Source: a virus
Length of the DNA stretch: 64,000 nucleotides
IMG/VR virus record: IMGVR_UViG_3300006793_000023
Span: 7,621-71,620 of that record
Direction: 5' to 3' (one strand)
A program made the translations under genes and the position numbers. Shown here piece after piece: positions 18,666 through 23,078 of this stretch. The notes beneath the pieces are model-generated. The model had not been told where the DNA came from. It saw only the letters and a list, made by a program, of their open reading frames with translations, and did no database searches. Positions within the stretch are counted from its first letter, which is position 1, and every line of letters starts with the position of its first letter.

Positions 18666-19082
18666 ATGGCAAAAAAAGTAAGATACGATTGGGATTGGAT
18701 CGACAAGCAGATTGACTCAATTGGAGAAAAATTAGAATCAATAGATAAACCTCAATTTATTACAGGAGTACCTAGAGGAGGGTTAATACCGGCAGTACTT
18801 ATGTCTCACAAATTTGAGATTCCTTTCATAGGATTAGAAGCAGCAAAAACATTACCAGGAGATTTGAAAAAAAAGGTACTTGTTGTAGACGATATAGCAG
18901 ATTCTGGGAATACTTTAGCACAAATTCAGAGACATAATTTTCTAACTGCTACTTTAGCTAGAAGATATTCATCTTCATTTAATCCACTTTTTGTAGGAAT
19001 AGATATTAAAGATGACCATTGGCTGGTATTTCCTTGGGAAAGATTATCAGCAAATTCAATACAGGATTATTTGGATAATTAA
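18666..19082 (+). CDS. type I phosphoribosyltransferase (Gpt/HGPRT-like)
   Basis: GVPRGGLIPA, VLVVDDIADSGNT PRPP-binding loop and WLVFPWE motifs. Confidence 0.88.
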   Translation: MAKKVRYDWDWIDKQIDSIGEKLESIDKPQFITGVPRGGLIPAVLMSHKFEIPFIGLEAAKTLPGDLKKKVLVVDDIADSGNTLAQIQRHNFLTATLARRYSSSFNPLFVGIDIKDDHWLVFPWERLSANSIQDYLDN

Positions 19083-19099
19083 AATAAATTACTTATATT
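19071..19099 (+). promoter_or_regulatory. sigma70-type promoter of folE
   Basis: TTG-N20-TATATT. Confidence 0.6.
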
Positions 19100-19108
19100 A
19101 CATAAGTA

Positions 19109-19137
19109 TGTGTCGTAGAACCACAATAAAACAAAAA
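19109..19137 (+). ncRNA. preQ1-I riboswitch-like aptamer (second copy)
   Basis: Stem TGTG/CACA, loop TCGTAGAAC, tail ATAAAACAAAAA; upstream of the folE ATG at 19145. Confidence 0.65.
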
Positions 19138-19144
19138 TTAAATT

Positions 19145-19858
19145 ATGCCTAAAAAGTTTATAGAAGGAACAGAATTAGTAAAAGCCGGATTCGCTAACGG
19201 TATTTCAACTCAATTAGCAGAGAAACAAAAAGTAGAAGGACCAGAAGCTAGACTTACTGATCATGAAAAGCAAGTTATTATAGAAAGAGCAGCTCAAGCT
19301 TATGCTGACTTTTTAACTGCTTTAGGATGCGATTACAAAGAAGATCCTAACTCAGCAGATACTCCTTTTAGAGTAGCTAAAGCTTACGTTAATGATTTAT
19401 GGGCCGGAAGATATAGTCCTCTAGATAAAATTACAGCATTTCCTTCAGACGGGTATGACGGTATAGTACAAGAGAGTAACATACCTGTAACGTCTATGTG
19501 TTCTCACCATCATCAAGCTATTAGAGGTACAGTAAGTATTGCTTATATAGCTTCAGAAGACGGTAAGGTAGTAGGGCTATCTAAACTAAATAGAATAGTA
19601 GAACAATTCGGTAGAAGAGGAGCTATTCAAGAGCAGTTAACTGTAGCTATTCATAATGCAGTAGATAAGATATGTGAAGGTAATTTAGGAGTAGCAGTTC
19701 AAGTTAATGCAACTCATGCATGTGTATCTTGTAGAGGAGTTAAGCATGGAGGAGCTTCTATGCAGACAGCTAAACTTACTGGAGCCTTTTTAGACGAACC
19801 ATCAGCTAAAGCTGAGTTTTATAAAAATATAGAATTAGCAGAAAAATGCAGTCATTAG
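19145..19858 (+). CDS. folE: GTP cyclohydrolase I
   Basis: TP.RVAK, SMCSHH, GLSKL.R, IQEQLT and HAC.SCRG motifs. Confidence 0.95.
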   Translation: MPKKFIEGTELVKAGFANGISTQLAEKQKVEGPEARLTDHEKQVIIERAAQAYADFLTALGCDYKEDPNSADTPFRVAKAYVNDLWAGRYSPLDKITAFPSDGYDGIVQESNIPVTSMCSHHHQAIRGTVSIAYIASEDGKVVGLSKLNRIVEQFGRRGAIQEQLTVAIHNAVDKICEGNLGVAVQVNATHACVSCRGVKHGGASMQTAKLTGAFLDEPSAKAEFYKNIELAEKCSH

Positions 19859-20738: not shown

Positions 20739-21531
20739 AATAGCTCACGAAAGCCCAAAAAGTATTTTTAGCGATGTACAAAAATATACAGACTACGATT
20801 ATGCTCTAGTACATTTATTTGAGGAAGATAAAGAATACTTAAATCAATTTAAAGAAGCAGTATCAAAAGGAAGAGAAGTTATATTAGATAATTCTATCTT
20901 TGAATTAGAGGAAGCATTTGATGCAGATAAATTCGCTCACTGGATTAATGAATTAAGACCTACATGGTATATAGTCCCTGATGTACTAGAAGATGCTAAA
21001 AAAACTATGAGTCAAATGGCTAGCTGGAATATGCACTATTCGGATGTAGTTTTTGGTAAAAAAATAGGAGTAGTTCAAGGTAAGACCTATAAACAAATAG
21101 TTGCATGTTATGAATATATGGATAAAATAGCTGATGTAGATATGATAGCTATATCATTTGATTATTCGTACTATACAAAGACGGTTCCTCATCCTAATAA
21201 ATACGTTAGCTGGATGCTAGGACGTATAAAGCTACTTGGAGATTTAGTTAAAGACGGAATTATAAATGAAAATAAACCTCATCATTTACTTGGATGCGGC
21301 TTACCACAAGAGTTTTCCTACTATTCTCAATACCCTTGGATATACTCTTTAGATACTAGTAATCCAGTTGTACATGGAATAAAAGGCATTAAATATAACT
21401 CAGACGGATTATGGTCTAAAGAAAGTCAAAAGTTGTTTGAACTGATTAATTACGAGGTAGGGGATACAAATTTAATTTTAGGAAACATTCATAAATTTAG
21501 ATGGTTAGCAAATGGCAGTAGAGAGTTATAA
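20731..21531 (+). CDS. dpdA: DpdA-type (DpdA3-like) TGT-fold 7-deazaguanine insertion enzyme
   Basis: TGT-family motifs ILDNS.FE, PDV, GVVQG, HHLLG and SLDTS, within the Que gene cluster. Confidence 0.75.
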   Translation: MIKIAHESPKSIFSDVQKYTDYDYALVHLFEEDKEYLNQFKEAVSKGREVILDNSIFELEEAFDADKFAHWINELRPTWYIVPDVLEDAKKTMSQMASWNMHYSDVVFGKKIGVVQGKTYKQIVACYEYMDKIADVDMIAISFDYSYYTKTVPHPNKYVSWMLGRIKLLGDLVKDGIINENKPHHLLGCGLPQEFSYYSQYPWIYSLDTSNPVVHGIKGIKYNSDGLWSKESQKLFELINYEVGDTNLILGNIHKFRWLANGSREL

Positions 21532-21706
21532 AATAGGAGATAAAGTAAAATTTAAGTTTATTGGCAGGCTTCAAGTAGGTATAATAGAAGATATAAAAGA
21601 AGGAGTTCAGGTGGATATCTGTAAAGAAAAAATTAGATTTGATATTAAAGACGGTAAATATACTTACCCAGTTGGTTTGGAAAATATTATAGAAAAAATA
21701 AAATGA
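21512..21706 (+). CDS. small SH3/KOW-like protein
   Basis: YKIGDKVKF...G.I pattern. Confidence 0.45.
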   Translation: MAVESYKIGDKVKFKFIGRLQVGIIEDIKEGVQVDICKEKIRFDIKDGKYTYPVGLENIIEKIK

Positions 21707-22242
21707 ATAAACCTTGGATAGCATTTTTTAGTCAGACAGGGTCTGAGATTGTTAGTATTGCTAAAGCTCTTAATAGATGGCCAGATGTTATAGTAACTAA
21801 TGAAAGACCTTCTAAACTTAGAACTATTAATTCAGCATTATTAGAACAGGATTTATTAGTTACAACTAGTAATAAACCTACAGAAACTGAATTATCTGAG
21901 TTACTTGAATACTACGATTCTCCAATAATAACTCTTCATGGATGGTTGAGAATAATGCCTCCTAAAATTTGTGAAAGTTATAATATATTTAACGGACATC
22001 CTGGCCTTATAACAGAATACCCAGAATTAAAAGGTAAAGATCCTCAAATGAGAGCTTTAAAAGAAGGGTACCCAGTAATGGGTTGTGTACTTCATAAAGT
22101 AGTTGCAGGAGTAGACGAAGGGAAAATCTTAGCAGAAGAAAGATTTAATGCTTTTAATATTAACGAAGAAGAAATGTGGATAGCTACTAGAGATAGATCT
22201 CTTTACCTATGGGTTAAATTTCTTGAGAAAGCTTTAATATGA
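21703..22242 (+). CDS. dpdN: PurN-like formyltransferase (DpdN-like, predicted preQ1 formylation)
   Basis: FFSQTGS, LHGWLRI, NGHPGL and GCVLH.V..GVDEGKI formyltransferase motifs; next to dpdA and queF. Confidence 0.75.
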   Translation: MNKPWIAFFSQTGSEIVSIAKALNRWPDVIVTNERPSKLRTINSALLEQDLLVTTSNKPTETELSELLEYYDSPIITLHGWLRIMPPKICESYNIFNGHPGLITEYPELKGKDPQMRALKEGYPVMGCVLHKVVAGVDEGKILAEERFNAFNINEEEMWIATRDRSLYLWVKFLEKALI

Positions 22243-22529
22243 CAGAAAAAGAGCACCTACTTGTACTCCTTATAGAAGAATGCGTAGAAGTATCTCAAAG
22301 AGCAACTAAGATACTTAGATTTGGCTTTAATGATCCTACAGGTACAGAACCTGATCAGCCGTATAATAATGAAGAAAGGCTTATACAAGAGATTAACGAT
22401 TTAGAAGCGGTTATAGATTTACTATTTCAAGATAAACCATTTTATAAATCACCTTTGCTTCAAAATAGAAAGAAAGAAAAAATAAAAAAATATTCTGAAC
22501 TTTCAAAAAAATTAGGTTTATTAAATTAA
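22239..22529 (+). CDS. MazG-like nucleotide pyrophosphohydrolase
   Basis: EECVEV...K.LRFG...EINDL (ExxE...ExxD) pattern. Confidence 0.65.
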   Translation: MTEKEHLLVLLIEECVEVSQRATKILRFGFNDPTGTEPDQPYNNEERLIQEINDLEAVIDLLFQDKPFYKSPLLQNRKKEKIKKYSELSKKLGLLN

Positions 22530-22559
22530 TTTTCGTATATTAAATATAAAGGTTATTAG

Positions 22560-23078
22560 ATGATTAAAAGAATAGCACTAGTAGGAGCTAGTAGTACGGG
22601 TAAGACTACTGTTTATGAACTACTTAAAAATAAATTACCTAAATACGAATTCGTAAACGAATCCACTAGAACTGTAGGTAGTTACGGATTTCCTATTAAT
22701 GAAGAAGGAACTTGTGCTACTCAGTTAGCTATCAGTAGTTTTCATTTAGAGGCTTTACTTCAACCTTATAACTTAGTATTAGATAGATGTTATATGGATG
22801 TAGTAGTTTATACTAAATTTATGAAAGGAGTAACTTCACATACTTACAATTATATAGAAGATACTTGGAATAGAGTAAAAAATGAATATACTCATTATAT
22901 TTACTTTCCTATTGAATTTGCTTCTGTAGATGATGGAGTAAGAAGTATAAGTGAAGAATGGAGAAAAGAAGTAGATGAAGAGTTTAGAGATGTATTAGAT
23001 GGAGTACGTCAACCTTACTTAACTATAACTGGTTCTCCTATGCAAAGAGTAGAACAAATAATGAAATTTATAAATTAA
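22560..23078 (+). CDS. P-loop nucleotide kinase (AAA_28/NadR-like, dNMP kinase candidate)
   Basis: GASSTGKTT, E..R, LDRC..D and DDGVR motifs. Confidence 0.75.
   Translation: MIKRIALVGASSTGKTTVYELLKNKLPKYEFVNESTRTVGSYGFPINEEGTCATQLAISSFHLEALLQPYNLVLDRCYMDVVVYTKFMKGVTSHTYNYIEDTWNRVKNEYTHYIYFPIEFASVDDGVRSISEEWRKEVDEEFRDVLDGVRQPYLTITGSPMQRVEQIMKFIN

Follow-up and report, generated by a model that had tools for sequence, protein, structure and literature searches.

A kinase and a nucleotide hydrolase beside DpdA3 suggest a possible nucleotide-level route to complete guanine replacement in a Flavobacterium phage-like gene cluster

The DNA of the immuto phages of Flavobacterium has been reported to contain 345,000 fdPreQ1 per 10^6 nt, with the deoxyguanosine (dG) peak gone, and the DpdA of these phages was assigned to a new subfamily, DpdA3, accompanied by the predicted formyltransferase DpdN (PMC10516641, Cui, Hutinet et al.). 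Complete replacement of G was reported in the same work for phages phiST, carrying dDG, and CP220, carrying dADG, each of which encodes a DpdA3 homologue. For the way in which a phage replaces every guanine, the sole published proposal, resting on the mere presence of a DpdA homologue, is post-replicative exchange on DNA, as put forward by the authors who defined DpdA3 (PMC10516641). Here, a related gene cluster was analysed in a 64,000-nt stretch of viral DNA, hereafter the window, which spans positions 7,621 to 71,620 of the 71.6-kb IMG/VR record IMGVR_UViG_3300006793_000023. At 18666-23078 of the window, a predicted DpdA3 is surrounded by a small kinase, an NTP pyrophosphohydrolase (NTP-PPase) and a phosphoribosyltransferase (PRTase), and the comparative pattern formed by these genes yields concrete, cheap enzyme assays that could overturn the post-replicative view.

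To our knowledge, all known full base substitutions are pre-replicative. The hydroxymethyl-dC pathway of phage T4 employs the dCTPase gp56, the dCMP hydroxymethylase gp42 and the dNMP kinase gp1, while the dZ pathway of S-2L employs MazZ, a MazG-type enzyme, together with PurZ and DatZ. Both share the logic proposed here, namely an NTP hydrolase, a dNMP-modifying enzyme, a kinase and a polymerase, for which the window contains candidate genes. Unlike in T4 and S-2L, the modifying enzyme would be a base exchanger of the tRNA-guanine transglycosylase (TGT) fold, for which there is no precedent on mononucleotides. The bacterial Dpd system, consisting of DpdA and the ParB-like ATPase DpdB, and the phage DpdA1 and DpdA2 enzymes have the TGT-family barrel in common with DpdA3, as well as 7-deazaguanine substrates made via FolE, QueD, QueE and QueC, but they act on DNA at partial stoichiometry, are often found beside ParB-like genes and have no adjoining kinase. 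Bacterial DpdA has been described as requiring DpdB (PMC10164549). A modified-dGTP route was in fact proposed for Campylobacter phages in 2019 (Discussion of PMC6884629), and the idea was dropped in 2023.

A preliminary description of the window, made from its letters alone, had placed four enzymes around FolE, DpdA3 and DpdN, and all four were recovered at those positions on the plus strand. The order is a Gpt-like PRTase (18666..19082; 138 aa; PF00156, 33.7 bits), FolE, the GTP cyclohydrolase I that forms the entry step of the 7-deazaguanine pathway (19145..19858; PF01227, 8.4e-42), a PRA-PH/MazG-type NTP-PPase (19846..20550; 234 aa; PF01503, 3.8e-10), DpdA3, predicted by homology and fold to be a minimal 7-deazaguanine transglycosylase (20731..21531), DpdN, a predicted PurN-like formyltransferase acting on the preQ1 amine (21703..22242; PF00551, 1.6e-12; TIGR00639 PurN, 8.7e-14, under the cut-off of that model), a small MazG-like protein (22239..22529; 96 aa) and a kinase of the AAA_28 family (22560..23078; 172 aa; PF13521, 4e-18), which resembles the NadR nicotinamide riboside kinase (RNK) domain, thymidylate kinases and deoxynucleoside kinases. 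The same description had suggested that these enzymes make a modified dGTP ahead of replication. The nucleotide-pool part of this idea is supported, as a kinase, and usually an NTP hydrolase, accompanies DpdA3 in unrelated phage lineages and not DpdA1 or DpdA2, as the kinase has a fitting fold and as a DpdL-kinase fusion exists; the attachment of preQ1 by the PRTase and the reliance on two MazG enzymes were not supported.

In the scheme favoured here, the PRA-PH/MazG enzyme is proposed to cut dGTP to dGMP, after which DpdA3 would exchange guanine for preQ1 on the free deoxynucleotide (possibly the deoxynucleoside) and not on finished DNA. The aminomethyl group would then be formylated by DpdN, and the AAA_28 kinase is proposed to phosphorylate the modified deoxynucleotide, which host kinases perhaps refuse. 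Host NDP kinase followed by the phage family A DNA polymerase (PolA) would complete incorporation, 7-deaza-dGTP analogues being good polymerase substrates, while the PRTase would return the released guanine to GMP and on to GTP for new base synthesis. We consider the chances that this sequence of events is correct to be evenly balanced. A wider version, in which DpdA3 would be the first TGT-superfamily enzyme to work on a free deoxynucleotide (a dGMP:7-deazaguanine transglycosylase) and the dADG, dDG and fdPreQ1 genomes would all arise before replication through a portable module of NTP pyrophosphatase, DpdA3, DpdN or DpdL, and kinase, plus a FolE-coupled PRTase loop recycling guanine, falls just short of that balance. 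If DpdA3 does act on free nucleotides, the TGT fold would gain an activity that is new to it, and 7-substituted 7-deaza-dGTPs, themselves useful as reagents, could be made enzymatically.

The association of the kinase with DpdA3 was assessed on 80 IMG/VR loci with a DpdA3 53-92% identical to that of the window, five named isolate regions found by tblastn and 10 contigs of metagenome-assembled genomes. The open reading frames (ORFs) of these loci were scanned with hidden Markov models (HMMs) iterated from the window proteins, and the counts given here per 87 sources refer to the first 87, many of which are truncated. DpdA3 was matched in all 87, followed by DpdN (74), FolE (71), QueF (65), the kinase (64), the NTP-PPase and a 62-aa ORF (49 each), the PRTase (47), an Endonuclease_NS protein (25) and the 96-aa MazG-like protein (2). 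Phage 9g and 93 DpdA1-type IMG/VR loci, 40-100% identical to the 9g DpdA and including 7 contigs fetched twice, served as the control. The kinase HMM, which matched 64/87 DpdA3 sources, matched 0/93 DpdA1 loci, and the NTP-PPase, DpdN and QueF HMMs likewise matched none of the 93. When any same-strand ORF of 100-260 aa with a Walker A motif within 1.5 kb of DpdA was counted, in loci with enough flank, 47/59 DpdA3 loci were positive compared to 2/84 DpdA1 loci, and both of the latter matches were spurious, each being the same alternative-frame ORF inside the PRTase-FolE gene. After clustering at 70% identity, a kinase was found within 1.5 kb in 13/18 DpdA3 clusters and in 1/11 DpdA1 clusters, the single one being spurious (Fisher p 0.0017, the clusters not being fully independent). 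Literature searches returned no paper linking either the kinase or the PRTase to DpdA3, and the words 'kinase' and 'phosphoribosyl' have 0 occurrences in the main text of PMC10516641.

The kinase next to DpdA3 is not always of the same kind. In CP220, an HD-domain and P-loop protein (gp055), DpdA3 (gp056) and a homologue of the window kinase (gp057) follow one another, while phiST has the order FolE, MazG (gp039), DpdL (gp040), an AAA_18 protein (gp041) and DpdA3. An AAA_18/33 protein precedes DpdA3 in Chryseobacterium phage MA9V-3, DpdA3 is followed by a DNMK and a DCD-like gene in Aeromonas phage Ahp1, and Weizmannia phage Youna2 has a 183-aa Walker A protein, DpdA3 and PolA in succession. 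The presence of kinases from different P-loop families (AAA_28, AAA_18, DNMK) beside DpdA3 suggests selection for function rather than shared descent. Both phiST and CP220 resemble the window in combining a DpdA3 homologue and reported complete replacement of G (PMC10516641) with a small kinase and an NTP hydrolase beside DpdA3. They differ from it in the final base, in the use of DpdL or QueC* where the window has QueF and DpdN, and in having no PRTase in the flanks; moreover, the phiST kinase belongs to another family, and in CP220 the MazG is replaced by an HD domain. In the non-DpdA3 isolates 9g, Streptococcus MS1, Dinoroseobacter R5C, Cellulophaga phi3ST:2 and Mycobacterium Rhinoforte, no annotated kinase was found beside DpdA, and those unannotated neighbours that were checked had no Walker A motif. 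In several non-DpdA3 phages a ParB-like gene adjoins DpdA, and none was seen beside DpdA3.

The window kinase is 66.7% identical to the immuto kinase, which, like that of CP220, is annotated as 'thymidylate kinase'. It scored 66.6 bits against PF13521 AAA_28 (cut-off 27), while the thresholds for dTMP kinases were not reached (PF02223, 22.9 vs 27 bits; TIGR00041, 28.4 vs 83.25 bits). Its AlphaFold2 (AF2) model had a predicted local distance difference test score (pLDDT) of 86.7, and the top Foldseek match was the NadR RNK domain (6gyf; E 5.5e-7; TMq 0.75), followed by dTMP kinases and then by deoxyadenosine, deoxycytidine and deoxyguanosine kinases. In a profile search, it could be aligned over its length with a NadR-like chain that shares its three motifs, the sequence and profile matches in the PDB being weak. 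Going by its modelled fold, the protein is predicted to be a small-molecule kinase of nucleosides or dNMPs. A predicted complex of DpdA3 and the kinase scored 0.24 against a mark of 0.32, a result that neither supports nor opposes the pairing.

Gene fusions connect several steps of the proposed route. A locus of the phiST type (L203) encodes, directly upstream of DpdA3, a 304-aa DpdL-kinase fusion whose N-terminal half resembles the phiST DpdL (E 8e-17) and whose C-terminal half resembles the phiST AAA_18 protein (E 4e-11). Such a fusion would be expected if tailoring and subsequent phosphorylation take place on a nucleotide, whereas exchange on DNA does not explain it. In addition, DpdA3 is fused to DpdN in P0168 and P0182 and to QueF in P0271 and P0272, which ties together the free base, its exchange and the tailoring step. 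The search for longer DpdA3 forms also returned an intein form and P0124. No DpdA3-kinase fusion was found among proteins of 146-466 aa (the best 120 listed) or of at least 488 aa, length windows that could hide one.

The window DpdA3 is homologous to the three founders of its subfamily, sharing 79.9% identity with the immuto DpdA (gp65), 42% with CP220 gp056 and 26.4% with phiST CGPG_00065 (E 7e-10) by tblastn. The family comprises 3918 close homologues and 1588 representatives at 50% identity (E<=1e-3). The AF2 model (pLDDT 96.6) is a TGT-type (beta/alpha)8 barrel that matched the Z. mobilis TGT in Foldseek (E 2.6e-7), and in VIA the Z scores were 18.0 with archaeosine TGT and 17.8 with TGT, at an rmsd of 3.0-3.2 over 231-234 residues. 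By sequence and profile, no solved structure gave a convincing match, the best relevant one being Salmonella DpdA (7ui4, E 0.18). Residues D53 and D208, which may be equivalent to the catalytic aspartates of TGT, were invariant across 39 diverse sequences. Two further features were considered and set aside: charge as a hint of DNA binding proved uninformative, as DpdA3 and DpdA1 are both acidic (median pI 5.25, n=74, and 5.63, n=78), and the missing C-terminal Zn cluster of DpdA3 was dropped as an argument, as the DpdA1 alignment is also without an invariant Cys cluster.

The enzyme proposed to supply dGMP scored 40.5 bits against PF01503 PRA-PH (cut-off 21.3) and 1e-28 against phrog_671. Its catalytic domain lies at approximately residues 83-234, identity among 12 aligned homologues is 74-84%, and its nearest Atlas clusters are all viral PRA-PH, while PDB sequence and profile searches yielded no solved relative. 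The gene is conserved only within the immuto-like group, and other DpdA3 operons contain NTP-hydrolase-type genes of other kinds: a different MazG in phiST, a DCD/dUTPase-fold gene at the PRA-PH position in L203 and L204, DCD-like genes in the operons of Ahp1, MA9V-3, L068 and L071, and an HD domain in CP220. The 96-aa MazG-like protein, for its part, matched phrog_4856 (7.5e-19) over the C-terminal half of the profile, and 13-53% of the members of its Atlas neighbours carry PF03819; it had no Pfam or NCBIfam match, and PDB searches gave nothing useful. As its gene occurs in 2/87 sources only (the window and L003) and is missing from immuto, it is an accessory outside the conserved module, and a pair of MazG-like enzymes, as initially suggested, is not a feature of the system.

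The PRTase had been suggested, alongside DpdA3, as a candidate for attaching preQ1 to a sugar phosphate, a role that does not agree with its distribution. The protein exceeds the cut-off of PF00156 (26.3 bits) and contains the phosphoribosyl pyrophosphate (PRPP)-binding motif of type I PRTase domains. Its best solved relatives, aligned end to end, are purine or xanthine-guanine PRTases (archaeal 1vdm, E 3.3e-13; E. coli XGPRT, E 1e-5), and the closest relatives use guanine, xanthine or hypoxanthine. Compared to Gpt and the archaeal purine PRTases (1vdm, 4z1o), with which it shares the PRPP motif and a whole-length alignment, it is shortened by some 15-20 residues between the first conserved loop and that motif, lies far under the cut-off of the xanthine PRTase equivalog NF006613 (47.9 bits vs 138) and occurs in linkage with GTP cyclohydrolase I or as a fusion to it. 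Among the 47 PRTase-bearing loci of the DpdA3 set, 41 have the gene immediately upstream of FolE (separated by at most 250 nt in 40 of them and overlapping by 4 nt in L019), and it likewise adjoins FolE in phiST-like loci. In CP220, phiST, Ahp1, MA9V-3 and Youna2, searches extending 8-12 kb from DpdA3 found no PRTase. In the DpdA1 control, where modification is partial and on DNA according to the published view, the same minimal PRTase occurred in 34/93 loci, in 33 of them as the N-terminal domain of a PRTase-FolE fusion of about 300 aa located just upstream of DpdA (31 distinct sequences; e.g. L162:9075-10001 and L170:1383-2324); literature searches returned no paper describing this fusion. 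The PRTase thus belongs with FolE, the GTP-consuming entry step, and does not track DpdA3. Since it is fused to FolE in these DpdA1-type loci, it is more likely to recycle guanine than to attach preQ1, and its most likely role is the salvage of guanine to GMP, feeding GTP to FolE. This is also the simplest reading, because every exchange frees one guanine and one GTP is spent on every new base. It is conceivable, too, that so short a domain has a regulatory function and senses PRPP. The fusion hints at a guanine-recycling loop common to 7-deazaguanine phages.

The published view would explain the cluster differently. There, DpdA3 would be a highly efficient DNA transglycosylase replacing every G after replication, DpdN would formylate either the free base or the DNA, and the kinase, MazG and PRTase would boost the flow from guanine through GMP and GDP to GTP for FolE and serve dNTP housekeeping. 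We regard this as rather unlikely, though still a serious contender, and a number of observations speak for it or weigh against exchange on free nucleotides. The characterised TGT and DpdA enzymes covered in PMC10516641 and PMC10164549 all act on a polynucleotide, DpdA3 retains the TGT barrel in its model, and the PRTase is tied to FolE. Kinases are also fused to FolE2 (P0280, 17 member sequences) and to QueC (P0279), with an AsnS-partial-kinase protein found in addition, and the first two of these fusions fit GTP supply or the mere joining of neighbours equally well. The kinase and PRA-PH families are widespread in phages without DpdA3; the AAA_28 kinase family was detected by tblastn in 120 phage records, those lacking a DpdA3 match comprising 89 from Streptomyces, 6 from Bacteroides, 2 from Rhizobium and 1 from Rhodococcus. 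The kinase homologue of Samisti12 lies in a general replication region, and the DNMK of the T4-like Ahp1 may simply be the homologue of core gene 1. Furthermore, 5/18 evaluable DpdA3 clusters have no kinase within 1.5 kb (L060/62/69/71; L186; L191; L193; and L190, where the kinase lies 2.5 kb off, beyond a GNAT gene), and one kinase-positive cluster owes this to 1/5 loci only (L187). Scanned over their whole records, five loci without a nearby kinase yielded none of the window type either; these records are 6-49% complete and at most 82.5 kb long. The presence of an NTP-hydrolase-type gene in most DpdA3 lineages is suggestive of a needed step from dNTP to dNMP but is given little weight, since phages in general often carry PRA-PH/MazG and dUTPase-fold genes and the controls MS1 and 9g carry a dUTPase 3-13 kb from DpdA. 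On the other hand, DpdA1 phages also need flux through FolE, with about a quarter of G modified in 9g (PMC6884629), and often carry the PRTase-FolE fusion, yet their loci contained neither the window-type kinase nor, apart from the spurious cluster, a small Walker A neighbour. The kinases beside DpdA3 are of deoxynucleoside or dNMP kinase types, none scoring as a guanylate kinase, and they touch DpdA3 in CP220, MA9V-3, Ahp1 and L188, where no PRTase is present in the flanks. The post-replicative view also leaves the DpdL-kinase fusion unexplained. DNA-acting DpdAs tend to adjoin ParB-like partners such as DpdB (PMC10164549), which DpdA3 was not seen to do, and DpdA3 is reported to have given no DNA modification in the E. 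coli tests of its authors (PMC10516641).

Two other routes to a modified triphosphate can be set beside exchange on dGMP. A very improbable one would have the PRTase join preQ1 (or preQ0 or CDG) to PRPP, DpdN formylate the ribonucleotide, the kinase produce the diphosphate and the phage ribonucleotide reductase (RNR) make it deoxy, leaving DpdA3 to mop up residual G. The window does encode a PRTase, a PurN-like enzyme and a kinase together with a class I RNR (7452-10161), and PRTases accepting 7-deazapurines exist in toyocamycin and tubercidin biosynthesis. However, in 33/93 DpdA1-type loci, where DpdA takes the free base as its substrate, FolE has this minimal PRTase as a fusion partner, its best relatives are 6-oxopurine PRTases, and a ribonucleotide analogue would also load RNA. 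The absence of a nearby PRTase in the five isolates named above includes CP220 and phiST, both reported as fully substituted (PMC10516641). The other route, a sub-variant of the favoured scheme that we hold to be improbable, would start from dG released by a triphosphohydrolase or phosphatase; DpdA3 would exchange the base of this dG, and the role of deoxynucleoside kinase would fall to the NadR-RNK-like enzyme. This would suit the best structural match of the kinase and the high rank of several deoxynucleoside kinases, the HD-domain protein beside DpdA3 in CP220, and the ADG nucleoside reported in the cytoplasm of CP220-infected cells (cited in PMC10516641), although nucleosides seen by liquid chromatography-mass spectrometry may derive from dephosphorylated nucleotides. 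MazG and dUTPase-fold enzymes, in contrast, yield monophosphates and not nucleosides, and Ahp1 uses a protein of a dNMP kinase family.

The gene cluster itself is already known from the immuto phages. Searched against the phage collection, 18666-23078 matched only the Flavobacterium phages vB_FspM_immuto_2-6A, 3-5A and 13-6C, the match covering 9% of the query with 77% identity. The annotated order in vB_FspM_immuto_2-6A (QueD, QueE, phosphoribosyltransferase, FolE, NTP pyrophosphohydrolase, DpdA, PurN-like formyltransferase, 'thymidylate kinase', QueF, PolA) is that of the window and recurs in most immuto-like IMG/VR loci, with the 96-aa gene as the exception, and the arrangement is therefore not due to chance. 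A second group of DpdA3 loci has the order FolE, DpdA3, DpdN, (kinase), QueF and QueC. Compared to immuto_2-6A, the window has the same gene set with an Endonuclease_NS gene and the 96-aa MazG-like gene added, and the DNA identity is 77% at best. In the virion DNA of immuto_2-6A, fdPreQ1 has been reported to replace dG (PMC10516641). The window encodes a full set for a system of the immuto type (FolE, QueD, QueE, QueC, QueF, DpdA3 and DpdN), and by this content it is predicted to come from an Immutovirus-like Flavobacterium phage and to carry that phage's cluster for substituting its genome with fdPreQ1. Every gene between 11.9 and 27.3 kb lies on the plus strand, the G+C content is about 32%, and successive ORFs from FolE through the 96-aa gene overlap by 1-20 nt.

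The remaining genes of the cluster, all on the plus strand, begin with the preQ0 synthase QueC (11938..12726; PF06508, 1.1e-36) and a flavodoxin-like or FMN-reductase-like protein (13652..14239; PF02525, 1.3e-19), which may act as a reductant for the radical-SAM enzyme QueE; the L071 cluster likewise contains an FMN_red protein. The CPH4 synthase QueD (16214..16678; PF01242, 1.1e-15) is positioned as immuto gp55, and the CDG synthase QueE (16659..17525), whose PF04055 match (2.6e-5) is under the Pfam cut-off, is syntenic with immuto gp57 and was matched by its iterated HMM in 65/87 sources. Downstream of the kinase are a bimodular QueF converting preQ0 to preQ1 (23083..23994; PF14819, 1e-27, and PF14489, 8.4e-18) and, at the 3' end of the cluster, PolA (24931..27309; PF00476, 2.9e-59, and PF01612, 1.2e-13), positioned as immuto gp72. 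The acidic 62-aa protein between the NTP-PPase and DpdA3 (20550..20738, plus strand) overlaps both neighbouring ORFs, spanning the stop of the former and the start of the latter, and had no significant family match in Pfam or PHROG. The non-specific DNA/RNA endonuclease of the Endonuclease_NS family (17908..18489, plus strand; PF01223, 6.4e-27) may be a degrader of host DNA that perhaps spares modified DNA. It was found at two cluster positions, upstream of the PRTase (18 sources) or between the kinase and QueF (7), the loci listed along with the window for this placement being L018, L022, L024, L028, L030, L032 and L056.

Several variants of the tailoring genes were observed in other DpdA3 loci. 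A GNAT acetyltransferase lies between DpdN and the kinase at L190:6139-7359, and a 332-aa protein with a weak similarity to amidoligases (E 0.0021) takes the place of DpdN at L185:6980-7978; further N-acyl preQ1 DNA bases seem likely to exist. Two loci of the second group also encode a peptide deformylase, at a distance of a few kb from the formyl-preQ1 cluster with DpdA3 and DpdN (L068:19035-19610 and L071:5138-5617). DpdL-like (QueD-like) sequences, with the motif of phiST gp040 as judged by eye, adjoin the DpdA3-like genes of Ahp1 (L084:7549-7941) and MA9V-3 (L086:6611-7492), and if these calls are right, both phages probably make 7-deazaguanine DNA like phiST. DpdA3 itself carries a C-terminal extension in P0212 and a 317-aa N-terminal extension in P0124, neither with a Pfam match. 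At L191:6001-9640 and L193:5983-9332, the immediate neighbour of the DpdA3 homologue is a family B DNA polymerase, and the flanks contain neither Que genes nor a kinase; the L193 polymerase has an intein-splicing domain match, and the DpdA3 protein P0273 has precomputed intein-splicing and homing-endonuclease domains.

Between 11000 and 28000, no preQ1 riboswitch was found with Rfam at E<=1, which bears on the preQ1-I-like elements noted earlier at 15931 and 19109. The only family matched in this range was tRNA, at 12905-13017 (41.8 bits, E 4.9e-6). The anticodon arm of this element is interrupted by 52 additional nt, and ARAGORN does not call it; it may be an intron-containing phage tRNA. Distant from PolA, a second, partial family A polymerase-like ORF is present at 1230-2555 (441 aa), matching profile positions 101-222 of PF00476 only.

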